From the NCBI GenBank assembly GCA_048882505.1, contig JBHLRO010000001.1, forward strand, positions 180,001-212,000: 32,000 nucleotides of DNA, in the 5' to 3' direction. A model generated the notes under the pieces. It was not told the DNA's origin. It searched no databases and saw only the letters and a program-made list of their open reading frames with translations. Below, one piece after another: positions 4,541 through 26,023 of the stretch; within the stretch, counting starts at the first letter, position 1, and each line of letters starts with the position of its first letter. Both the position numbers and the translations under genes were made by a program. This DNA comes from Candidatus Thorarchaeota archaeon. GTDB lineage: Archaea; Asgardarchaeota; Heimdallarchaeia; Hodarchaeales; Hodarchaeaceae.

Positions 4541-5965
4541 ATGTGTAATCCCAGAATTGCCTTCAATCTGTTGTTTGCTGTTCTCGTTTCTTTTTCTTTG
4601 ATTCAAGTGTTCTCTTACCAAAATGCAGAATCAGGAGAAATAAACGCTTTTACGACAAATATTCTCCTTTCTACGGAAGATATGATTTATCCAGCTCATG
4701 TAGAGCCGACCTTGGCGATTTCCACAAATGGGACACTGTTTGCAGGGTGGAAACAAGCATACAGCCATAATGGAGAGGGCGTTCGGGTTAGTTTTTCCAA
4801 ATCCATTGACGGTGGGATTACTTGGTCTTCCCCTTTTGACATGCCCAAGTTTATGGGAATGAACACGGGCCAATCCGACCCGTGGTTGGTTTGGCATAAC
4901 GAGTCCCTATTTTACGCATATCTAGAGTATGAACTGAACCGACCACCTGCAACTGCTTGGTCCCAAATTACGATGGCTAGAAGTCAGGATTACGGAAAAT
5001 CGTGGAATCCAGTAACAGCAACTTATGGCGAGGGATTTGCAGATAAAGAAACAATTGCTATCAGTTCCTCTGGTGTAATCTATGTTGCTTATGATGACAT
5101 TGTCGGGGAGAAGGTTGCAATCCGAGTAAGTCGCTCAGAAGATGCTGGTATGACCTTTTCTGAGGTTAAAGTGATAACTGATTCAGTCACCAACCCTGTA
5201 GATCACCTATCACCTTACATAACGACAGACAGCCAAGAAAATGTCTATGTAGCTTGGATATGGTATACCGAAGCTAATTGGGGTGATATATACATGGTAA
5301 AATCACAAGATCAAGGCCAGACTTTCTCGGCTGCTAGTGATATTAACCTGAATGATCAAAACGCGTCAATTACCATAACCGATGGCCGTGTATCTCGTGC
5401 CTCGTTACCAGTCCTTAGGTTCCATGATGAAAGACTATTTGTATCATGGTGCGCAAGATTAGAAGAAGCTGGAGGATGGGATGTATATCTTCGATATTCT
5501 GATGACTATGGCGCAACTTGGAGTGATAGAATACGAGTTAATCCAGACACAGAGGGAGACCAATGGCAACCCGACTTTGATATAGATAATATGGGTCGGG
5601 TTCATTACGTGTGGTTAGATGAACAAGGGAATTCATTTCGTCCTTATTATCGGATGATCTCCATTTCGGATCTAGATAGCACGCCCACACTTGGTCCAGT
5701 CGTACCCATTGCTAGTGTTAGAACGTCAAATGCTTTCACGAGACCTGGCGATTATTTTACTGTTCGTGTGGATGGCGCTGACATCCCACATGTCGTATGG
5801 ACAGACGGTCGAAATGATGGAATGGATATTTATTATAGCCATGGGATCCACGAAGAGACTACAACCAATACAACTCCGACAAGCTTTCATCCCTACATAC
5901 CTGTCGTTTTATTATTGACGGTTGTCTTAAAAAAGATAAGGGGGCGTTTCAAGTCTTATGAGTAG
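4541..5965 (+). CDS. Secreted Asp-box (BNR) beta-propeller protein, sialidase-like fold, with C-terminal anchor
   Basis: N-terminal signal peptide; five Asp boxes (SIDGGITWS, SQDYGKSWN, SEDAGMTFS, SQDQGQTFS, SDDYGATWS); Thr-rich linker, hydrophobic segment and basic tail at the C-terminus. True sialidase activity is not established. Confidence 0.82.
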   Translation: MCNPRIAFNLLFAVLVSFSLIQVFSYQNAESGEINAFTTNILLSTEDMIYPAHVEPTLAISTNGTLFAGWKQAYSHNGEGVRVSFSKSIDGGITWSSPFDMPKFMGMNTGQSDPWLVWHNESLFYAYLEYELNRPPATAWSQITMARSQDYGKSWNPVTATYGEGFADKETIAISSSGVIYVAYDDIVGEKVAIRVSRSEDAGMTFSEVKVITDSVTNPVDHLSPYITTDSQENVYVAWIWYTEANWGDIYMVKSQDQGQTFSAASDINLNDQNASITITDGRVSRASLPVLRFHDERLFVSWCARLEEAGGWDVYLRYSDDYGATWSDRIRVNPDTEGDQWQPDFDIDNMGRVHYVWLDEQGNSFRPYYRMISISDLDSTPTLGPVVPIASVRTSNAFTRPGDYFTVRVDGADIPHVVWTDGRNDGMDIYYSHGIHEETTTNTTPTSFHPYIPVVLLLTVVLKKIRGRFKSYE

Positions 5966-6205
5966 TAGAAAGGAAGATAAGGCTTCTCAAGGATAGAAAC
6001 CTTTTCCTCCAACGCAGAAATAATTATACCTTGGCTCTATTCAGCGATGATATTCCCTAACCTACTGGTTTGGGGATGAACTTTAAATCAGCAAGTTTTT
6101 AAGGAAGTCGGCCCTCATTAGACTGATTACTTTCAGGAAGATAACAACAATTTAGTTCTTCCCATTTTAACTTTTACTTCATTATATCATGCTTATAACG
6201 GACTA

Positions 6206-6727
6206 ATGGTGTATAAATTGAGTTTCTTCAAAAAAATATTTGCAAAACCAAAAACAAAAACAGTCAGAGCGGATTCTGATCTCGAATTACAGGAAAAGGT
6301 GAGAAAGCAAAGCGAAACTCCAGATAGTACCGCTCCAATAACCACGGGACGAGGAGGGATTAGTTTAAAGGACCATACAAGTTTATTAGAAAAACGACTC
6401 AATCAACCTGAAACACGCCAAAATCCCCCTAAGCACATCGAAGTCATTCGTGCGCTAGCAGCCAATTATGTAAAACTAGGAAACCTTGAGGATTTTGGAT
6501 ACTTTGCAAAAGCTGAGAACCTCTATAAACAAATGAATGTTCTCTATCCTCTCCATATGGAGAAGATCGATTGGGTTAATTGGATTGAAGCATCAGCTAG
6601 GGCAAAACTGATTCGTGAGGCCCGACGTTTACTGACAGAGGCCCGTCTGCTGTTTCCTGGTGATCAGGAATTTGATCGTATTGAAACAACTGTTTTACAT
6701 ATCACTCAAACTGAAACTACTGGATAA
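6206..6727 (+). CDS. Hypothetical protein with TPR-like helical C-terminal half
   Basis: 173-aa ORF; C-terminal helix pairs with TPR-like pattern (LAANYVKLG...AKAENLYKQM..LYP; EARRLLTEARLLFP). Likely true start is TTG at 6218, 4 nt after GGTGTA. Confidence 0.7.
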   Translation: MVYKLSFFKKIFAKPKTKTVRADSDLELQEKVRKQSETPDSTAPITTGRGGISLKDHTSLLEKRLNQPETRQNPPKHIEVIRALAANYVKLGNLEDFGYFAKAENLYKQMNVLYPLHMEKIDWVNWIEASARAKLIREARRLLTEARLLFPGDQEFDRIETTVLHITQTETTG

Positions 6728-6773
6728 ACGGGTTCAGAAGCTTGATAAAAAAAGCTAGAAATCTAGTTTGTTG

Positions 6774-7925
6774 TTAAAACTCGTTTTCTGTTGAACGAGC
6801 TGACTTTGGGTCGGATTCTCCTCTATAAAAGAGAAACGCGATTAAGACCCCAATAAATCCAATGAAAGATCCAATCCCAAAGTTAGGTTGTATTTTTCCG
6901 GACCCTGATGCAAAATAAGCTCCGATCAAAGTTCCTGCAGCAATTCCAATGTAGTTTGACGATCCCAGAAAGCCCATATAACGACCCCTGTTCCTCTCCG
7001 TAGTATTCTCTGCAATGACCAGAGGAGAAACGATAAAAAAGATCGAGTAGATCGGGATAGTGTATAACATTAACATTAACAGAGGGTTGATCGCGGATAG
7101 AATAAAGGTACCAAACGCCAGAAAAAAATAGAGGAGCATCGCTAATAGCACCAAGGGGCGGAATGAAACCTTATTCGCAATTTTTCCCATTAAAAAAGTC
7201 CCTCCAATGCCAAAGAGGGTAGCAAGGGTATTTGCTATCCCAACCCAAGCCACAGATAACCCCACCTCCTGTTCTAGGAAAATTGAAAATAATCCAACTA
7301 CCAGATTATTTGATACTTGAGAGATGATTGTTAAGAGAAGGAGAACATAGATCAGATAAAGGGATCTGTTGACCTCCCGAACGGGAGGGTCTGTTTTATA
7401 AGTTGGATAAAGAGAATGATTCACCTCTAATGGCGAAAGGTGCCTTTCCTGTAGCCCAAGACTAAGTAATACAGATATACACGAAATTATCCCTGCCCAA
7501 AGAAACAAAGATTGTAATCCGATATTATCAATCGTAAGAGAGGTAAATAGACTCCCTAATAAGAATCCTAGGCTGGCCATGACGCCCAACCTGCCAAATT
7601 TCTCCGCGTGTTCTCCCTCTGGGGAATTAATTGTCACCAAACGAGTAAATGCGGGTCCAAATGCAGCAACGAAAAAATTGAAACATAAATATGCCCAAAA
7701 GAAAGGAACTGCACTCCGAATTGTCCAGTATACAAAAAAGGATAGCGCCATAATAACGAGGCTCATAAAGATCAATCGTTTCGAGCCCCAAAGATCACTC
7801 AACCATCCAAAGAAGGAGGTGGAAAAGATTTGGAGTAGATATGGAAGGCTAACGAGTAATCCAGCCCCCCAAATGTCTCCTTCCGAGAGAATAAAGAAAT
7901 ACCACCCGACAAAGGGAGCAGCCAC
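6774..7925 (-). CDS. MFS transporter
   Basis: Motif A (FGWLSDLWGSKR) and its C-half copy (GKIANKVSFRP), ERNRGRYMG loop, many TM segments. Frame stays open to 8036, so the real start is probably upstream of the GTG (see findings). Confidence 0.9.
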   Translation of the reverse strand: MAAPFVGWYFFILSEGDIWGAGLLVSLPYLLQIFSTSFFGWLSDLWGSKRLIFMSLVIMALSFFVYWTIRSAVPFFWAYLCFNFFVAAFGPAFTRLVTINSPEGEHAEKFGRLGVMASLGFLLGSLFTSLTIDNIGLQSLFLWAGIISCISVLLSLGLQERHLSPLEVNHSLYPTYKTDPPVREVNRSLYLIYVLLLLTIISQVSNNLVVGLFSIFLEQEVGLSVAWVGIANTLATLFGIGGTFLMGKIANKVSFRPLVLLAMLLYFFLAFGTFILSAINPLLMLMLYTIPIYSIFFIVSPLVIAENTTERNRGRYMGFLGSSNYIGIAAGTLIGAYFASGSGKIQPNFGIGSFIGFIGVLIAFLFYRGESDPKSARSTENEF

Positions 7926-12368: not shown

Positions 12369-15206
12369 ATGAACGATTCGAAGGCAAAATCTGAGTTTGA
12401 GAAACAAATAAACCTACTGTGGGAATCGGATTATAGAACTGAGCAAAGCTGGAATGAATTCCTCAATTGCCTGTCTCTGGAAGAGGTTACATTCGTAGGG
12501 AACTTATCGTCTCACACATTCCAATTCATTACAAACAATTTACTTATCATCGCTCTTAGAGACACATGGAAAGAGAAGGATTGTTTAGGCTATCTTAGTG
12601 ATGTTAGAAAGGATTTAAATCTCAATGGTAAGGATTTAGTGATCGTAACGGCATTATTGGAGCCGTTTCAAAATGTCTCATTTTTTTTTCAACCAGGACA
12701 CACAGCAGGTTCAAAGATCAAGGTTATTCGGATTCCTCGGTTTCATATCCCATATTTTTTTTCGCTGGACAGGAAAGGAGTCCCTTCTGCGACTTTAAAG
12801 GAACTTCTCTGTAATTGGATTGACCAAATCTCGCTAGAGAGGGAGTACTTGGATGTCTTTACAGATTCAAAAACCAGCTTAAAGGAGAGGGTTTATCTTG
12901 CCACGCTAACACTAATTTGGGGGCTTTTAGTCCATTTAGAAGGAAAAAAACTTTTGGTATCCAATAAGAGCATAGACCGAGACGGATTTCGTAAGCTGAC
13001 TTTAAGATTCCTTAAGGAGTTCATTGGGCCCGAAATTGGCTATTCAGACAATTCCCTGGTAAAAGAATTGCTGAAAGACATCGTAGCGGATGATAACGAC
13101 TTTGATTTTAAGTTGATAAGCCATTTGTCACAATCCTTTCCCTACTCATGGATTGAACCCTCTACAATGATGGAAGAGGTCGCGATCACTCCTGTCATTC
13201 TCTCAAAGGTCTTTGAATCCTTCGGATTAGGGGAAAAAAAACACGGCAAATATTACACAAAAATCGTGGATGCGGAATTTCTCAGTTTCCTCGGTTTATA
13301 TCGATATTTACAGACCAAAAAAGAAGGAATTGATCTTAAAAGTCTTCGTGACGCATATTACTATCCCCTATTATTTTCTAATGGTGAAACGAATTATCAG
13401 CTTTCTCCTCACGAAATTTCCATAAAAATACTCGATCCAAGTTGTGGTACAGGAACGTTCTTGATCTCTATAGCCAATTTAATAATCCGCTTCCTTCAAA
13501 TCAAAACTGAACCTATTCGCCTTAAACTTCATCTCTGGGGAGTCGATATCGCCTCACTCCCTCTCTGGATAACTAAAACGAGAATAACATTCCTAAAAAT
13601 GACGATTTCGAAGAAAATTAGATCCCAGATGACTTTGCCCCTCAAAATAGACACCGTGAAGCTTATTAGGTCGGATTTTTTTGCATGTTCTTTTCCTACA
13701 TCTTTCGACCTCATTATCGGCAATCCTCCATGGGTCCGGCACGAAGATATAAACTATGGAATCCGAAGTGGTTCTTTCAGCAAGAATCAAATCCACAATA
13801 AAGTTGCAAAGGAATTAGGAACAGGAGTAGTTCTGGACAAAAGGAGCGACCTATCAATCTTTTTTTGTTTAAGAGCATTCTCCTTGCTTGACCCAAAGGT
13901 CGGCCAACTTTCCTTTATCATGCCCATTTCATGGTTAGAAGTTCAGTTTGGGCGTAGTCTTCAGAACTTTCTGTTAGATCCTCTAAATCGTATCTCAAGA
14001 TTTGAGGTGCTTAATTGGGAGCGAAAACGTCTCTGGGAAGAGTTGGGCGTAAATTCTGTTTTCTTCTTGGCATCTCGTGAGACGCAGGTTCCAAAAAGTT
14101 TAACGGATGGATTTTTTACTACTTCTTCGGTGCCATTTTCTGAAATTCCTCCCAAAACCTTACAGGATGGAATTCTTGACTTACGGGAGCACAGGTTCAA
14201 TATTTATAGAACAGAAAAATTAGAGGGAGCTGTTCTAAGGACCACAAAGAAATGGGCTGGTAGTTTTCTACGTACTCCTCTTAAGATACGTAGAATCATT
14301 AAGAAACTTCAAACTAAAGGGATAGCCTTGGGTGAACTCGCCATAGTACGGTTCGGGATAAAAACAGGTGCAAACGATTTTTTTTACTTGGAATTGAGCG
14401 AAAATTCAGCATCTAATCCGGATCTTATTCATGTACGAAATCGCTTGGGTTTCGGTGGCTTAATGGAGAGGGAATACTGTATTCCTATAGTAAAATCACC
14501 TATCGAAATCCAAGGCTTTATCATATCCAAATCGTTTGTATCAACACGTTTACTCTTTTATTGTCAAGAATCTCCAGATGAACTCAAAGATAAGCAGGCG
14601 CGCCGTTTGATTGAATGGGGAGAATCGTTAGAACTTGAAATAAAGCAAGGAATTAATAGTGGAAACCAGATACAGGGGATTAAGTCTTTAAGAAGTCTTA
14701 GAGGAAGGAGACAGTGGTATTCTATTCCCGAAACACCCATTCCCGATCTTGTTTGGACAAAGAGTTTCCATGATCGTCCGGGCTGTATATTCAATGAGAA
14801 AAGAGTACATACTGATCAAAGATTTTACTCAATTATATTGAAAGATAAGTCCTTTACTTCTCTGGTCTTCCTTTACCTCAATAGTTCCTTAGTATGGGCT
14901 CAAACTGAAATTCAAGGGAATACAAATATGGGATTTGGAGTACTCGACACGAATGTGTATTCCTTAAGAAGTATCTTCATCCCTGTGGGTCTTGTAAACG
15001 ATCCTACAAAAATGAAATGCGTGGAGGATTTGGTAAATCGATTAAAATCTCAGCCAAGGAGATATTCCATGCTAAAGAATTCTCCACTTCTTCATGAAAT
15101 AGATTCTTTGTTCTATGATTACTTTGATATTTCCGAAAAGGATCGGCAAAATCTCTCTTACTTTGTAACAAGTACATTGAAGAAAAGAATACGGATGACA
15201 ACCTAG
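12369..15206 (+). CDS. Type IIG / Eco57I-like N6-adenine DNA methyltransferase (gamma-class motif order) with C-terminal target-recognition region
   Basis: GKYYT (motif X), ILDPSCGTGTFL (motif I), FDLIIGNPPW (motif IV), GIKTGANDFFYL and a TaqI-C-like C-terminal region. Confidence 0.88.
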   Translation: MNDSKAKSEFEKQINLLWESDYRTEQSWNEFLNCLSLEEVTFVGNLSSHTFQFITNNLLIIALRDTWKEKDCLGYLSDVRKDLNLNGKDLVIVTALLEPFQNVSFFFQPGHTAGSKIKVIRIPRFHIPYFFSLDRKGVPSATLKELLCNWIDQISLEREYLDVFTDSKTSLKERVYLATLTLIWGLLVHLEGKKLLVSNKSIDRDGFRKLTLRFLKEFIGPEIGYSDNSLVKELLKDIVADDNDFDFKLISHLSQSFPYSWIEPSTMMEEVAITPVILSKVFESFGLGEKKHGKYYTKIVDAEFLSFLGLYRYLQTKKEGIDLKSLRDAYYYPLLFSNGETNYQLSPHEISIKILDPSCGTGTFLISIANLIIRFLQIKTEPIRLKLHLWGVDIASLPLWITKTRITFLKMTISKKIRSQMTLPLKIDTVKLIRSDFFACSFPTSFDLIIGNPPWVRHEDINYGIRSGSFSKNQIHNKVAKELGTGVVLDKRSDLSIFFCLRAFSLLDPKVGQLSFIMPISWLEVQFGRSLQNFLLDPLNRISRFEVLNWERKRLWEELGVNSVFFLASRETQVPKSLTDGFFTTSSVPFSEIPPKTLQDGILDLREHRFNIYRTEKLEGAVLRTTKKWAGSFLRTPLKIRRIIKKLQTKGIALGELAIVRFGIKTGANDFFYLELSENSASNPDLIHVRNRLGFGGLMEREYCIPIVKSPIEIQGFIISKSFVSTRLLFYCQESPDELKDKQARRLIEWGESLELEIKQGINSGNQIQGIKSLRSLRGRRQWYSIPETPIPDLVWTKSFHDRPGCIFNEKRVHTDQRFYSIILKDKSFTSLVFLYLNSSLVWAQTEIQGNTNMGFGVLDTNVYSLRSIFIPVGLVNDPTKMKCVEDLVNRLKSQPRRYSMLKNSPLLHEIDSLFYDYFDISEKDRQNLSYFVTSTLKKRIRMTT

Positions 15207-16716: not shown

Positions 16717-17259
16717 CTATAACTGACTTCGAAGCACTATGATTTTCCGCGCGAGCATTTCGAACGCGTCCTCGATGGCTTCCCCAGTTTTTGCAGAGGT
16801 CTCAACAAATCCTGAATTTAGCGCTTTTGCTTTAGCAAACCCTTGAACTGTTTTTAGGCTGGAGGTAACTTCTTCTCTGAGATCAATCTTGTTTCCTATT
16901 AGCACCACAGGCAGCTCTGGGAAAGTCTCAGCGCGTTCACGAACTTCTGCTATCCAGACATCAATTGAATCCAGCGTTTTGGGTTGTGTAATATCATAAA
17001 CAGCCAAGGCTCCAAAGGCTCCTTTATAGTAGGCTTTCATGACATTTCTAAATGCTGGTTGTCCCGCGAGGTCCCATATCTGCCAGTTCACATCATAATC
17101 ATCAATTTTCGTTCTTAAAAAGGCAAAATCGGCTCCCATTGTGGCAAGAAAGTCCGTACGAAATCCTTCTCCCATATAGCGTCTCCTGATCGAGGTTTTC
17201 CCGACCGCTCCATCCCCGATGAGCACTATTTTTAGAAGAAGTTTCGAGATCATCGACAC
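16717..17259 (-). CDS. Rab-like small GTPase (Ras superfamily)
   Basis: G1 GDGAVGKT, G2 TMGADF, G3 WDLAGQ, G4 NKID, G5 ETSAK; RabF-like YYKGA and VYDIT. GTG at 17259 or ATG at 17253. Confidence 0.95.
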   Translation of the reverse strand: MSMISKLLLKIVLIGDGAVGKTSIRRRYMGEGFRTDFLATMGADFAFLRTKIDDYDVNWQIWDLAGQPAFRNVMKAYYKGAFGALAVYDITQPKTLDSIDVWIAEVRERAETFPELPVVLIGNKIDLREEVTSSLKTVQGFAKAKALNSGFVETSAKTGEAIEDAFEMLARKIIVLRSQL

Positions 17260-17422
17260 ATCCTAATAATTTGGGATTTTGGGGCTTAAAGTCATTGTGA
17301 AGAAGAATCCGTTAATGAATTTTAAGTAATAGTCATTACAGGGGTTTATATGTCATTCCTCCCCAGGATATTATAAAATAGTTCGGTGATAAAAAATCGA
17401 CTCCTCCCGTCTTTGCTTCGTA

Positions 17423-17968
17423 GTGGGCAGGTCAGGCAGCGGAAAGGATCTCTTGATGCGAAAAACAGTCGAAGATCTGGTCCACAAGGGATTACCAGCT
17501 GTCATCCTTCAAAGGGTCATCACTCGTAAGGCCGATTCCTCGGAACAATCCAAATTCGTAACTAGAACGCAATTTCAGAACCTTAAGGAACGAGGCGAGT
17601 TTGTTCTCTCATGGCTCATCTATAATACTAGTTTTGGAATTCCTCGTAAAGAACTATTCGATTTTTTATCGAAAGAATACATTGTCCTAGTGAATGTGTC
17701 TCGTGAATTGCTATTTGAAGCACGGCGTCTCTTTCCGGAATCAAAAATTGTTTATGTAAAAGCTTCACCGGCTATCTGTGAAGATCGGATTCGTAATCGC
17801 CAACGTGAAGTCAATAATGACCTAAATGATAGAATTGAGCGGCTCCAAAAAGAGATCGAGATGCCGTCCCCCAACCTTATCATAAACAATGAGAATAGCA
17901 TAACAACGGCAGTAGAGGAATTCACAGCCTTCTTAAGCGATTTATACAAGGAAAAGAGTGGGGAATGA
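17423..17968 (+). CDS. phnN: PhnN-like P-loop kinase (ribose 1,5-bisphosphokinase / guanylate kinase family)
   Basis: GRSGSGKD P-loop, RVITR, F.LSW..Y...FGIP, VLVNVSR, RIRNRQRE lid. The conserved strand RLCFVV lies upstream of the GTG, so the true start is probably near 17396. Substrate not proven. Confidence 0.75.
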   Translation: MGRSGSGKDLLMRKTVEDLVHKGLPAVILQRVITRKADSSEQSKFVTRTQFQNLKERGEFVLSWLIYNTSFGIPRKELFDFLSKEYIVLVNVSRELLFEARRLFPESKIVYVKASPAICEDRIRNRQREVNNDLNDRIERLQKEIEMPSPNLIINNENSITTAVEEFTAFLSDLYKEKSGE

Positions 17969-19161
17969 GGGATACCGTAATTATAGGAGTCGGAATGGGA
18001 CATAGATGGGGTAACCATCCCCAAAAATCGATCATTGATCTCATGGCCAAGGCTTCGTTAGAAGCAATTGAAGACGCGGGGACTGACCGAATAGATGGTC
18101 TCTTAGTGGCGAATATGGGCGCGGGAAGGATGAATAACCAAACTGCTCTTGGATCCGCTTTGATCGATTTTCTCAATTTGTACCCCGCAGTTGGAGCCAC
18201 AATTGAAAACGGGGCGGCCTCTGGGGCCACTGCTATACGTATGGCAGCTCTGGCAATAAAATCTGGGCATCATAACTGCATTATGATAGCTGGCGGGGAA
18301 AAAATGCGAAGTGCATCCAAGGAAGAAATCACGAATTTTATCGCCACTATGGCCCATCCTGAGGCAGAATATAATCAAGGTATCACCTTCCCCAGCCTAG
18401 GAGCGTTCCTAACGCGCCTTTATTTTGAGAAATTCGGGGTATCCCGTGAAGATCTTGCAAGAGTTGCTGTTAAGAATCATGAAAATGGATTAAAAAACCC
18501 CATTGCCCATCTTCATAAGAAAATTACTGTACGTGAGCTTCTAACAAATGAAACACTCAATCCCTTGATAGTAGATCCGCTTCATCGCTATGACATATGC
18601 CCGATTTCAGATGGGGCAGCCAGTGTAATTATTTGTGAAAAAACACTTGCAAAAAAGCTTACGGATGGGCCTCTAATTCAGCTGACAGGCATTGGACATG
18701 GAATGGACACGATGACGGTACATGAGCGAATAGATCCAACATTTCTTGGAGCTGTCAAGCGATCCTGTGATCAGGCACTTTTACAAGCCAAAAAATACAG
18801 AGAAGATATTTCATTGATCGAACTACATGACGCTTTTACTATTCTGGAACTAGCAGAGGCAGAATCCGCTGGGTTCTTTAAACCTGGTACCGCGCATCTT
18901 GCTGTTAAAGATGGAAAAACTGAAATCACAGGAAATCTCCCTATAAATCCTTCCGGAGGTCTGAAAAGCCGAGGACATCCACTAGGTGCCACCGGAGTGG
19001 CCCAAATTTGCGAGCTCGTCTGGCAACTGCGAGGGCAAGCTGGGCCTAGACAAGTCCCCAATAATCCCGTAAACGGACTTGCCATTAATTTTGGGGGATT
19101 TGGTAATTCCGTCATTTCCACCATTGTCTCTAGAGTGCAAAAAGGAAGTTTGATACAATGA
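17965..19161 (+). CDS. Thiolase-fold protein (archaeal/SCP2-type) lacking both catalytic cysteines
   Basis: GGEKM, VAVKNH.NG..NP.AH, PISDGAA, HDAFT, NPSGGLKSRGHPLGATG, NFGG. ENGAASG replaces ENACASG. ATGA overlaps with both neighbours. Confidence 0.9.
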   Translation: MRDTVIIGVGMGHRWGNHPQKSIIDLMAKASLEAIEDAGTDRIDGLLVANMGAGRMNNQTALGSALIDFLNLYPAVGATIENGAASGATAIRMAALAIKSGHHNCIMIAGGEKMRSASKEEITNFIATMAHPEAEYNQGITFPSLGAFLTRLYFEKFGVSREDLARVAVKNHENGLKNPIAHLHKKITVRELLTNETLNPLIVDPLHRYDICPISDGAASVIICEKTLAKKLTDGPLIQLTGIGHGMDTMTVHERIDPTFLGAVKRSCDQALLQAKKYREDISLIELHDAFTILELAEAESAGFFKPGTAHLAVKDGKTEITGNLPINPSGGLKSRGHPLGATGVAQICELVWQLRGQAGPRQVPNNPVNGLAINFGGFGNSVISTIVSRVQKGSLIQ

Positions 19162-19511
19162 GATCTCCCGTTGGATATCAGTGTGATTCCTGCTCAAAAA
19201 TACATTATCCTTACCACAAAAGGTGTCTCGAATGTAAAAACACCCAGTTTACTGAAATTTGCCTGCCATCCACGGGTATATTAATCACCTATTCCATCAT
19301 ATTTGATTCTTCAGCCAAATCGAAAGAACCTCTTTGCTTGGGAATCGTTGAGTTAACATTAAACAGAGATAAAGTTCGGTATACTGGACAACTGGACGTT
19401 AAAACTGGGGATATCCAGCTAGGAATGAAAATGCATGCGAAATGGGGAAAACTGCGGAGTCTAGATAATCATGATCATTTCGGTTTTCTATGGATAAAAA
19501 GCTTGAAATAA
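19158..19511 (+). CDS. DUF35 Zn-ribbon/OB-fold thiolase partner protein
   Basis: CDSC..HYP...RCLEC zinc ribbon, G.LITYSII, P..LGIVEL, IGMKM-like OB-fold; overlaps the thiolase stop (ATGA). Confidence 0.9.
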   Translation: MRSPVGYQCDSCSKIHYPYHKRCLECKNTQFTEICLPSTGILITYSIIFDSSAKSKEPLCLGIVELTLNRDKVRYTGQLDVKTGDIQLGMKMHAKWGKLRSLDNHDHFGFLWIKSLK

Positions 19512-23017: not shown

Positions 23018-26000
23018 ATGAAAAATATAAAGATCTTGTGCGCTACGGGAGTGGTAGCGCTAGTCTTTGTAATGTCCTTGGTTGGCGGTATGATTCCACA
23101 ATTAAAAAATCAGAATCCAGCGACAAACCAAGTGAATGGAACTCCTGAGAATGTTCCAGTTGAACCTCTGGGTGTTACGGAACAACCGGAGTTGGAACAA
23201 CCTACCGATTTCTCGGAAAAACCAGAATCGGACCAAGATACAAATCTCACGGAGGAACTGGAAGAACCTCCGTATGTCGAAACGATTCCGGAACAACCTA
23301 CAGGAGATAACATAGCTGATGAAGTCAATCCTGAGTTCGCGTCCTCCACAAGTGAGCTTCAAAGTAGCGTAGGTACGCATCGGTTTTCGATCAGCTACTA
23401 TAGGGCGAATATCCATAACACGCACGATCTTTGGCCCTTTAGTGGAAATTGGCGTTTTTGGGCAACTGGAAGCACATGGACAGGTACTTATGACAACATT
23501 GGAACCGGGATTATTGATTTCTCGGATAGAAAGGGCTCGTGGGATGTCACGGGAAGCACTTCACAGACCGTATTTGTAGTTGAAGCTCAGGAAATAGATC
23601 TGGGTCTTGTAGATTACTGGTCTCGAGTGACTATAACAATACCTTCTCCTGCCTACATTACTCCGAACAATTGGCAACAAGATAATTCTCGCGCTGGGGA
23701 TGTCACGCACTACTGGCAATACAACCTTAGAAATCTTGCCCCAATAGCGCAAGCAATTGGTGGCGCAGGTCTCCACCTCCAATGGCAACCCATTGTTTTG
23801 TCGGGCATTGGCTCGGAACCAGAAGGCGACAGTTTCAGCTGGTATTGGGATCTCAATAATGATGGATCTTTTGAGACCAAGGTGTCTAATCCCACGTTTC
23901 CCTCAGATGTGCCTGGAACCTACACAGTAGGTCTTCGTGCAAGGGATGATCAATATGGAGCATGGTCAAATGTAGTTACTGCTACTGTTACTATCGTTCC
24001 AGACTCAGATATGGATGGAATCAGTGATGGCGATGAAATAAGCATATATGGCACAGATCCTTCGAATCCCGACACTGATGGTGACGGCCTATCCGATGGC
24101 GATGAAGTTCTCGTTTATGGCACCGATCCTTTGAACCCCGATACCGATGGCGATGGCCTATCCGATGGAAAAGAAATCATGTATGGAACGAACCCTTTCG
24201 TTTCAGACACTGATGGGGATGGGCTTTCCGATAGCGAAGAAGTCTTTCAATACTTCACAAGACCATTATCAGTTGACACTGACACGGACGGACTGACTGA
24301 TGGAGAAGAAGTTTTAATTTACAATACAGATCCGTTAAACCTAGATACCGATGGCGATGGCACATACGATGGTGATGAAGTACTTGTTATAGGTACAGAT
24401 CCTTTGAATTCGGACAGTGATGGCGATGGCCTACTTGATGGACATGAGACGGTTATTTATGGTACGGATCCTTTGAATCCAGACACTGATGGTGACGGCC
24501 TATCCGATGGCGATGAGGTTCTAATATACGGCACTGATCCTCTAAACCCCGATACCGACGGTGATAGCTTGTCCGATGGGCAAGAAATCCTTACTTATGG
24601 TACGGATCCTTTGAACCCGGACACTGATGGCGATGGCCTATCCGATGGTGATGAGGTTCTAATATATCGATCCAATCCTCTGAACATTCATAGTGACTTT
24701 GACGGAATCCCAGATGGCGATGAAGTTCTTTTGTATGGAACCAATCCTATAAATCCTGATACGGACGCAGACGGACTAGTTGACTTTGATGAGATTTTTG
24801 TCTATGGTACCGATCCCATTAATCCCGATACCGATGGTGATGGCCTATCCGATGGGCAGGAAATTCGTACCTACGGTACAGATCCCTTTAATCCCGATAC
24901 CGATGGTGATGGCCTGTCTGATGGGCAGGAAATTCGTACCTATGGTACCGATCCGTTAAATGCGGATATGGATGGTGATGGCTTATCCGATGGTGAAGAA
25001 GTTCTCATTTATGGCACCGATCCTTTGAATCCAGACACTGACGGTGATGGCCTATCCGATAGCGACGAAGTTCTCATTTATGGCACCGATCCTTTGAATC
25101 CAGACACTGATGGCGATGGCCTATCCGATAGCGACGAAGTTCTCATTTATGGCACCGATCCGTTAAATGCGGATATGGATGGTGATGGCCTATCCGATGG
25201 CGATGAGCTTCTTGTTTATGGTACCGATCCGTTTAACTACGACACCGACAACGACGGTCTATCCGATGGCGAAGAAGTTCTTATCTATGTCACCGATCCC
25301 TTAAATCCCGACACTGATGGCGACGGCTTATCTGATGGTGAAGAAGTTCATTTGTATGGTACCGATCCTTTGACCGCGGATATCGATGGTGATGGTCTAT
25401 CTGATGGGCAGGAAATTCTTATCTATGGCACGGATCCCTATAATCCTGATACCGATGGCGATGACTTATCCGATGGCGATGAGGTTCTTACTTATCTCAC
25501 CGATCCTTTGAACCCCGATAGCGATGGCGATCAGGCGACCGATGGTGACGAGGTTTTATTCTATGCATCTGATCCATTAGTAATTGATACTGATGGGGAT
25601 GGTCTCAGTGATGGGTTTGAGATTTTAGTATCAGGTACGGATCCCACCAATCCGGATACGGATGGTGATGGCTATACAGATTTTGAAGAAGTTACTGATC
25701 CACCCAGTGCTCCACTTAATCTCGCAGCGCTCCGAACTAGTTCTGGAGTCGACCTGACATGGGCTACGCCCAATAAGATTGGAGGTACGCCGATTCTTGA
25801 ATATAGGGTGTATCGAGCCAAACTTACCCTCTATTGTTTTACAATACCCTTTCCACCGTATCTGATCTGCTTTTGGCTACCAGGACCCTATAGTTTTATT
25901 GGTTCAAGTAGCACCCTTAGTTACGCTGACTCCACCGCAGTCCTTGGAGAAACCTACTACTATGTCGTCACAGCCGTAAATTCGTTAGGTGAAAGCGTCT

Positions 26001-26023
26001 ATTCTAATAGAGTTCAAATTTAA
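23018..26023 (+). CDS. Large surface/secreted protein: signal anchor - acidic linker - unknown beta domain - PKD - 25 TSP3-like Ca-binding repeats - FN3
   Basis: N-terminal hydrophobic helix; E/P/Q-rich linker; PKD-type WYWDLNNDG...PGTYTVGLRA; DTDGDGLSDGDE repeats; FN3-type PSAPLNL...LTWATP...YRVYR...YYYVVTAVN..GES. Confidence 0.9.
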   Translation: MKNIKILCATGVVALVFVMSLVGGMIPQLKNQNPATNQVNGTPENVPVEPLGVTEQPELEQPTDFSEKPESDQDTNLTEELEEPPYVETIPEQPTGDNIADEVNPEFASSTSELQSSVGTHRFSISYYRANIHNTHDLWPFSGNWRFWATGSTWTGTYDNIGTGIIDFSDRKGSWDVTGSTSQTVFVVEAQEIDLGLVDYWSRVTITIPSPAYITPNNWQQDNSRAGDVTHYWQYNLRNLAPIAQAIGGAGLHLQWQPIVLSGIGSEPEGDSFSWYWDLNNDGSFETKVSNPTFPSDVPGTYTVGLRARDDQYGAWSNVVTATVTIVPDSDMDGISDGDEISIYGTDPSNPDTDGDGLSDGDEVLVYGTDPLNPDTDGDGLSDGKEIMYGTNPFVSDTDGDGLSDSEEVFQYFTRPLSVDTDTDGLTDGEEVLIYNTDPLNLDTDGDGTYDGDEVLVIGTDPLNSDSDGDGLLDGHETVIYGTDPLNPDTDGDGLSDGDEVLIYGTDPLNPDTDGDSLSDGQEILTYGTDPLNPDTDGDGLSDGDEVLIYRSNPLNIHSDFDGIPDGDEVLLYGTNPINPDTDADGLVDFDEIFVYGTDPINPDTDGDGLSDGQEIRTYGTDPFNPDTDGDGLSDGQEIRTYGTDPLNADMDGDGLSDGEEVLIYGTDPLNPDTDGDGLSDSDEVLIYGTDPLNPDTDGDGLSDSDEVLIYGTDPLNADMDGDGLSDGDELLVYGTDPFNYDTDNDGLSDGEEVLIYVTDPLNPDTDGDGLSDGEEVHLYGTDPLTADIDGDGLSDGQEILIYGTDPYNPDTDGDDLSDGDEVLTYLTDPLNPDSDGDQATDGDEVLFYASDPLVIDTDGDGLSDGFEILVSGTDPTNPDTDGDGYTDFEEVTDPPSAPLNLAALRTSSGVDLTWATPNKIGGTPILEYRVYRAKLTLYCFTIPFPPYLICFWLPGPYSFIGSSSTLSYADSTAVLGETYYYVVTAVNSLGESVYSNRVQI
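24002..25693 (+). repeat. Intragenic tandem array of 25 units of 69 nt (23 aa), bacterial thrombospondin type 3-like repeat
   Basis: Consensus DTDGDGLSDGDEVLIYGTDPLNP; 24 full units (unit 3 is 22 aa) plus one partial unit, counted from the translation. Confidence 0.95.

Follow-up and report, generated by a model that had tools for sequence, protein, structure and literature searches.

A Cys-less thiolase-fold protein of an Asgard archaeon as a probable GNAT-less member of a GNAT/thiolase-like/DUF35 module

Thiolase-fold proteins associated with DUF35 partners are employed in mevalonate channelling, steroid aldolases, benzylsuccinate thiolysis and Friedel-Crafts acylation, and the thiolases among them need an acyl-accepting Cys. 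The present analysis concerns a thiolase-like gene lacking that residue (17965-19161, + strand; 398 aa, P0001) and the DUF35-type gene next to it, both located in a 32,000-nucleotide stretch of a Candidatus Thorarchaeota archaeon (contig JBHLRO010000001.1, positions 180,001 to 212,000, assembly GCA_048882505.1), hereafter called the window, whose numbering is used throughout. The source is a 4.3-Mb Asgard (Heimdall/Hodarchaeales-type) assembly, 94.6% complete. The protein belongs to a Cys-less subfamily encoded in a three-gene module, the GNAT gene of that module has been lost, a subfamily-specific loop has eroded, and the remaining pair is under purifying selection. Considering its family membership, the deletion history of the locus and the retained selection, the protein is likely to be a derived, GNAT-less member of a GNAT/Cys-less thiolase-fold/DUF35 module.

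Among solved structures, the archaeal acetoacetyl-CoA thiolase of the thiolase/HMG-CoA synthase/DUF35 complex (Protein Data Bank (PDB) code 6esq) and 7yvy, the top PDB match (1.4e-74), have the same fold end to end as the window protein, with E-values from 1e-64 to 1e-74, sharing the HDxF and GHP motifs, a DUF35 partner and the gene overlap. The window protein differs in having neither the nucleophilic Cys nor an adjacent HMG-CoA synthase (HMGCS) gene, whereas its subfamily possesses an inserted loop and a Thr-Asp...His-Pro block, with GNAT, not HMGCS, as the apparent ancestral third partner. The absence of an adjacent HMGCS gene, already stated in the original prediction, could be extended: none is present in the window, the Pfam HMG_CoA_synt_C search of the organism's own genome gave no match, and a TIGR00748 search of the genome recovered a single sub-threshold HMGCS-like gene, the only one of the genome, about 115 kb from the window (L006, G000:C1:313565-314545). 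That gene encodes a 557-aa fusion with a C-terminal zinc-ribbon/DUF35-like tail and has no thiolase beside it; an HMGS-DUF35 fusion of a similar kind has been described in Pseudomonas (PMC12960953). With HMGCS not adjacent, the pair falls outside the archaeal thiolase/HMGCS/DUF35 mevalonate complex.

Other Cys-less thiolase folds with DUF35 partners have been described as non-thiolytic, namely the steroid side-chain aldolases Ltp2 (with ChsH2-DUF35) and Sal (with Shy-DUF35), and the trypanosomal SLP (PMC12329534). TcLtp2 carries Y294DHF and Tyr344, and Sal carries Y302DCY, with YDC[Y/F] as the pattern of Sal and SLP (PMC12329534). In the window protein these motifs read H288DAF and His338, so that both Tyr positions of Ltp2 are His and the Tyr/Cys dyad of Sal/SLP is missing; membership of the Ltp2 or the Sal/SLP type was rejected on the absence of the catalytic residues, as had been anticipated for Ltp2. 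Moreover, the DUF35 protein stands by itself, with no MaoC hydratase fused to it as in the steroid aldolase systems. An archaeal thiolase fold with a replaced nucleophile is also found in ST0096 of Sulfolobus tokodaii (PDB 4yzo, 'thiolase-like protein', E 1e-68), which reads NTSGSG; however, it has Ser at the nucleophile site, HDMA instead of HDAF and no inserted loop, belonging to another subfamily.

Three-component organization is likewise known from the Friedel-Crafts C-acetyltransferases PhlABC and MucABC, which are complexes scaffolded by DUF35 around a thiolase-fold subunit and descend from the archaeal complex by a change of function (PMC6392133, PMC12960953). Nevertheless, the catalytic Cys is retained in PhlC and MucB, whose structures show it acetylated, and their third subunit is HMGCS-like and not a GNAT. 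The benzoylsuccinyl-CoA thiolase BbsAB is a two-component system of DUF35 (BbsA) and thiolase (BbsB), as here, but BbsB is a Cys-dependent thiolase, and the scores of the window pair are far under the respective cut-offs (39 vs 250 bits and 136 vs 750 bits).

Regarding the sequence of the window protein, full-length Pfam domains were matched (Thiolase_N, PF00108, 3e-23; Thiolase_C_1, PF22691, 9e-37) and, together with the full-length PDB alignments, place it in the thiolase superfamily; it scored under the cut-off of every NCBIfam thiolase model, the highest being PRK06064 with 368 vs 420 bits. In the HMMER alignments, gap-free around the motifs, Ala84 (codon GCG, 18214-18216, on the + strand as are all codons given here) falls on the nucleophilic Cys, IENGAASG aligning with IEAACASG of 7yvy and 6esq, and Ala290 (GCT, 18832-18834) falls on the x of HDxF in solved archaeal-type thiolases. 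The acyl-accepting Cys (CxS(G) motif) of the catalytic archaeal/SCP2-type thiolases (ACAT) is absent in the alignment to 7yvy and 6esq, and both ACAT histidines are present, His288 (CAT) in the H288-D-A290-F motif (18826-18837) and His338 (CAT, 18976-18978) in GHP. Translation of the open reading frame (ORF) and these alignments bear out the four residues as first reported. The statement that both catalytic cysteines had been replaced stands for the first site and was overstated for the second, as 34 of about 93 Cys-bearing representatives have HDAF too, and so does PDB 7yvy, which makes the motif not diagnostic of the Cys-less state; a 2026 paper gives the archaeal motif simply as HDxF (PMC12960953).

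The Ala84 codon is not explicable by a sequencing or assembly error, as the original prediction had argued, because both a contig of an independent study (run X2), matching 17821-18788 with 0 differences, and a 92% relative carry Ala84. X2 leaves a gap at 18789-18865 and lacks the last ~60 nt, so that Ala290 rests on the source assembly and the 92% relative.

On the sequences compared, lack of the Cys is fixed throughout a very large subfamily and is no peculiarity of this copy. All of the 120 best homologues read ENG[P/A]ASG...H[D/N]AF...GHP, being Cys-less at both sites, with Pro at the nucleophile site in about 97%; they come from Asgard archaea, Hadarchaeales, Bathyarchaeia, Bipolaricaulota, Armatimonadota, Bacillota and others. 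The possibility that close relatives all keep the Cys, raised at the outset, does not apply, and scoring of positions 84, 288, 290 and 338 gave the Cys-less motif with H[D/N]AF and GHP throughout. Among 114 full-length members, which leave out the window protein and its 92% relative, position 84 is Pro in 111, Thr in 2 and Ala in 1, while C, P, S, D, E, G, A, N or Q are found at this site across the wider superfamily sampled at 50% identity. The only invariant Cys of the subfamily (114/114) is Cys212 (TGC, 18598-18600), in a D-x-C-P-x-S-D-G-A motif, at a site that varies among C, S, T and A in canonical relatives. The window protein keeps 121 of the 131 subfamily-conserved positions, and in the tree its long branch falls within the Hodarchaeales clade; its DUF35 gene follows immediately, as in other members of the subfamily.

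The thiolase-like side of the subfamily comprises at least 7,600 protein clusters, and every source that names these proteins calls them 'acetyl-CoA acetyltransferase', a label that is almost certainly wrong. A divergent ENGPASG/HDAF protein was also noticed on a methanogen-like contig (L117, 4001-5453), where it lacks the docking-loop insertion and is followed by a 94-aa ORF; since no GNAT lies upstream of it, Pro-type thiolase-like proteins also exist outside the GNAT module.

In contigs of Heimdall, Hadarchaeales and Bipolaricaulota type, a gene of about 230 aa overlaps or abuts the thiolase-like gene upstream, giving the order GNAT-fold protein, thiolase-like protein and DUF35. Its products are 48-55% identical across domains and gave no match in a Pfam search, being assigned to no family there, and the GNAT side comprises at least 3,575 clusters (90% identity), of which all named ones are 'hypothetical protein'. 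An AlphaFold2 model (pLDDT 83.7) has PatZ, Rv0998 and the PAT GNAT domain as top Foldseek matches, with probability 1.0, and an Atlas feature search agrees with the GNAT assignment. A scan for the GNAT-fold protein, taking one genome per species, found at least 582 carrier genomes, the cultured Neomoorella stamsii DSM 26217 (L041) among them; from 80 loci fetched, 75 had room downstream, and in 72 of these the thiolase-like gene and then DUF35 follow directly, 70 of the 72 reading ENGPASG. The module spans Asgard and other archaea and more than 10 bacterial phyla, suggesting from its gene order that the thiolase-like protein is ancestrally the middle subunit of a GNAT/thiolase-like/DUF35 module. 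No paper on this trio was found in the literature.

The neighbourhood of the module is recurrent as well, as in 49 of 78 loci, from many phyla, it abuts one of two gene sets. The first, upstream, encodes a three-subunit Mo-hydroxylase of the xanthine-dehydrogenase family (MoCoBD, FAD_binding_5, Fer2_2), and the second, downstream of the trio, an AllH-like and FdrA-like pair, both seen in bacterial loci (L041-L115); in a Hadarchaeales locus, AllG, Amidohydro_2 and AFOR lie near the module. These flanking genes hint at heterocycle/ureide catabolism or at CoA-thioester hydroxylases. Neither MoCoBD_1 nor AllH is present in the genome of the window.

To model the interaction of the three proteins, an intact Heimdall trio was co-folded; each chain was given an alignment, and the GNAT was taken as the partner to be scored. 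Over three runs the median score was 0.63, compared to 0.00 for the best of 3 controls; at that mark, a benchmark passed 58 of 80 solved complexes and 2 of 110 mismatched pairs, which is only roughly valid here, because three chains and self-made alignments went into the prediction. At least 91% of the contacts recur between runs, with a partner pLDDT of at least 81. As we know of no solved GNAT-thiolase complex, it is unlikely that the pass reflects a structure already familiar to the model. The co-fold thus favours binding of the GNAT to the thiolase-like chain, without demonstrating it. The predicted contacts on the thiolase-like chain are residues 16-17, 184-201 and 211, of which 194-200 form an insertion absent from canonical thiolases, so that in the model the GNAT docks on the inserted loop beside the active-site entrance. 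In the GNAT, residues 125-131 are among the contacts, probably representing the loop that binds the CoA pyrophosphate in GNATs.

In the window lineage, this third gene is missing. GNAT was not found in the window's genome by single-protein or profile search, nor in a relative (G016) with a 91% orthologue of the thiolase-like protein, and it is present in 15 of 21 congeners; among the 14 congeners with the thiolase-like gene, only these two lack it. The locus is syntenic with that of a sister genome (L007, whose intact trio lies at 5292-7538), with a Ras-like gene (-) and a kinase gene (+) followed at a distance by the thiolase-like and DUF35 genes, and then by a small ORF (-) and a penicillin amidase gene. 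Five genes between the kinase and thiolase-like genes of the sister locus are missing in the window, namely three ORFs without known function, an amidohydrolase, which was not found anywhere in the window's genome, and the GNAT; a PNP-family gene downstream is also missing. Because the adjacency of GNAT and thiolase-like genes is ancestral across phyla, the state of the window is read as a deletion.

The deletion is accompanied by changes in the remaining protein. Its root-to-tip distance in the tree is 1.65, compared to 1.1-1.25 for the sister sequences, and no other member of the clade has as many changes at the 131 subfamily-conserved positions (10). The changes include P84A, D124N (AAT, Asn124, 18334-18336) and N382S (TCC, Ser382, 19108-19110, in the NFGGFGNN loop), Asp124 and Asn382 being invariant in 114/114 members of the subfamily. 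The predicted docking loop (residues 185-199, 18517-18561) has a 3-residue deletion and changes at conserved Glu, Gly, Ile and Ala positions, and it is no longer the intact loop typical of the subfamily. Moreover, the predicted interface is enriched in changes at conserved positions (7/11 vs 23/177, Fisher p=2.8e-4). A link between loop and GNAT is consistent with two other cases: the G007 genome, which has an unlinked GNAT and whose thiolase-like protein retains Pro84 and the whole docking loop, and the L117 protein, with neither the insertion nor an upstream GNAT. In G007 (L018, L025), GNAT and amidohydrolase lie on one contig (C42, C15 being the two contigs) and the thiolase-like, DUF35 and PNP genes on another, with surface-protein genes at the break.

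Despite these changes, the pair is under strong purifying selection. In comparison with the 92% relative, the thiolase-like gene has a ratio of nonsynonymous to synonymous substitution rates (dN/dS) of 0.082, DUF35 one of 0.21 and the kinase one of 0.11, the first being lower than most of the values of eight neighbouring genes (0.04-0.24). Neither gene of the pair has a broken reading frame in either genome; in the annotation of the relative, DUF35 had simply not been called. This DUF35-type protein (P0002, 117 aa, 19158-19511, + strand) has a Cys4 zinc ribbon (CxxC...CxxC) and a putative OB fold, and its gene overlaps the 3' end of the thiolase-like gene by 4 nt (ATGA). It has no Pfam match to DUF35 (PF01796/PF12172), and its only family match is a weak one to NCBIfam BbsA (5.6e-10); however, it aligns with DUF35 proteins of the family that do match PF01796 and keeps all columns invariant in their alignment, which agrees with the complete, overlapping DUF35 gene first described.

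As for the mode of action, the equivalents of His288 and His338 form the first oxyanion hole in thiolases. The second, according to the Zoogloea thiolase mechanism, uses the backbone NH at the equivalent of position 84 to stabilise the acyl-Cys intermediate; Pro84 would remove this NH in the subfamily, and Ala84 would restore it in the window lineage. Because thiolases need the acyl-accepting Cys, the window protein cannot run ping-pong Claisen chemistry, and with Ala84 on the Cys site it is, as initially proposed, not a covalent (acyl-Cys) thiolase and presumably not an acetoacetyl-CoA thiolase. The subfamily would have given up covalent catalysis, with Pro (Ala here) at the nucleophile site and Ala as the x of HDxF, keeping the two oxyanion-hole histidines, the C-terminal NFGGFGNN loop and the invariant tunnel Cys. 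The ancestor may have been a GNAT/thiolase-like/DUF35 module with the GNAT on the inserted loop near the active-site entrance, from which a deletion in this lineage would have taken the GNAT and four neighbouring genes; the docking loop would then have eroded and P84A, D124N and N382S arisen, as the pair stayed under purifying selection. We infer that the pair forms the usual DUF35-capped thiolase-fold dimer and binds acyl-CoA, whose thioester may be polarised via His288/His338 without an acyl-enzyme. It could be a slow non-covalent enzyme of lyase/decarboxylase type, or a non-catalytic acyl-CoA-binding or scaffold subunit for another partner. Ancestrally, the pair would feed or receive from the GNAT site, and here it would act alone or with another partner. 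The description in the original prediction of a non-catalytic subunit or undescribed chemistry remains a fitting one.

Several observations weigh against a derived, GNAT-less module member as the explanation. At 94.6% completeness of the genome, the absence of GNAT is not formally proven, although the G016 assembly agrees and the locus itself shows the deletion. The adjacency is not obligatory, as GNAT is unlinked from the thiolase-like/DUF35 genes in G007; the co-fold gives model confidence and not a measurement; and dN/dS is one pairwise estimate. The term non-thiolytic would follow from the established requirement for Cys, and the invariant Cys212 probably lines the CoA tunnel, which would permit a relocated nucleophile.

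This last point leads to a true thiolase with a relocated nucleophile, for which Cys212 would be the candidate, being constant in the subfamily and variable in canonical relatives. We know of no thiolase with a relocated nucleophile, and by hand alignment Cys212 appears to match the pantetheine-tunnel Ser of bacterial thiolases and not the catalytic centre; with the loss of the second-oxyanion-hole NH through Pro84 in the subfamily, this explanation is very improbable. A less remote one is a catalytically active His/His, Cys-free acyl-CoA retro-aldolase or lyase with DUF35, like Ltp2 and Sal, as the His288/His338 oxyanion pair and the strong purifying selection suit a working active site and DUF35-bound Cys-less thiolase-fold proteins are proven aldolases (PMC12329534). 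It is still unlikely, considering that Tyr294/Tyr344 of Ltp2 are both His and Tyr302/Cys304 of Sal are His/Ala here, that no MaoC hydratase or hydroxyacyl-CoA-forming gene lies nearby, that the conserved partner of the subfamily is a GNAT and not a hydratase, and that this copy has the neutral Asn in place of the invariant Asp124.

Loss of the partner could also have left a decaying paralogue drifting to a pseudogene, a case the original prediction had foreseen as fatal to its claim. The missing GNAT, the long stem branch, the eroded loop and the 10 changes, two of them at 100%-invariant residues, would fit it, but the dN/dS of 0.082 led to its rejection, and the intact frame in both genomes, the intact DUF35 and the retention of all motif residues except P84 among the 121 kept positions leave it hardly any probability. 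Equally improbable is a rewiring of the pair to the PhnN-like kinase encoded upstream, as a kinase/thiolase-fold complex. The stop of that gene (PhnN/guanylate-kinase-like, 17423-17968, + strand) overlaps the start of the thiolase-like gene by 4 nt (ATGA), an arrangement conserved in the 92% relative, and its own dN/dS is low. However, the deletion alone explains the adjacency, since the kinase adjoins the Ras-like gene in the sister genome too, 4.4 kb from the trio; the overlap is therefore secondary, having been created by the deletion that removed GNAT. In addition, the kinase has no canonical start codon upstream of its first beta strand.

Concerning this kinase, in-frame stops lie just upstream (17385-17425), and the first beta strand (RLCFVVG) has no ATG, GTG or TTG ahead of it; GTG 17423, the first canonical start, is inside that strand, directly before the P-loop GRSGSGKD. 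The orthologue of the sister genome has an N-terminus 28 residues longer, with an ATG start. Given its dN/dS of 0.11, the kinase is probably expressed from an unusual start. Across the kinase/thiolase-like junction (17858-18023), a minor 166-nt contig in the probable source run shows 13 differences, at a depth of 3.9 vs 30.8, and it probably belongs to a co-occurring strain. Further upstream are a eukaryote-like small GTPase of the Ras/Rab family (16717-17259, Pfam Ras 8e-44), ~700 bp from the thiolase-like gene, and an Eco57I-type fused restriction-modification methylase of 945 aa (12369-15206), both conserved in the 92% relative. Downstream, 23018-26023 encodes a 1001-aa protein with 19 bacterial TSP3 calcium-binding repeats and a PKD domain, whose weak match to the binary-toxin B Ca-binding domain probably reflects only the calcium-binding repeats.

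Two further thiolase-like genes exist in the source genome, both with DUF35-type neighbours. The one at L002 (G000:C25:20853-24989) encodes the only Cys-bearing thiolase of the genome, canonical in reading EAACSSS/HDCF, and is flanked by a Zn-alcohol-dehydrogenase-like gene and by a gene for a 407-aa DUF35-SDR (3-oxoacyl reductase-like) fusion, a layout that looks like an ACP-independent fatty-acid-type module. The other (L003, G000:C5:5616-9719) is a second, unrelated Cys-less type of 422 aa, IDNGGNTGG/HDAF/GHP, followed by a 222-aa DUF35-type protein.

Taken together, a broader reading may be put forward tentatively, with the odds rather against it: the module would be a new class of CoA-dependent complex, using a thiolase fold without an acyl-enzyme and a composite site with the GNAT, widespread in anaerobes and, judging by its neighbours, possibly engaged in a heterocycle/ureide pathway. 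As part of the same tentative reading, loss of the GNAT in the Asgard lineage would have gone along with an adjustment of the core (P84A, D124N, N382S) to a second function, perhaps involving a new partner. The subfamily adds to the thiolase-fold/DUF35 platform a very large branch with no catalytic Cys and a GNAT as third subunit. For reconstructions of lipid and mevalonate metabolism in Asgard archaea, it follows that this genome, with its three thiolase-like genes, has just one that can encode a thiolase, and the GNAT-less copy of the window offers a clean comparison for the residues that serve the GNAT-dependent reaction.

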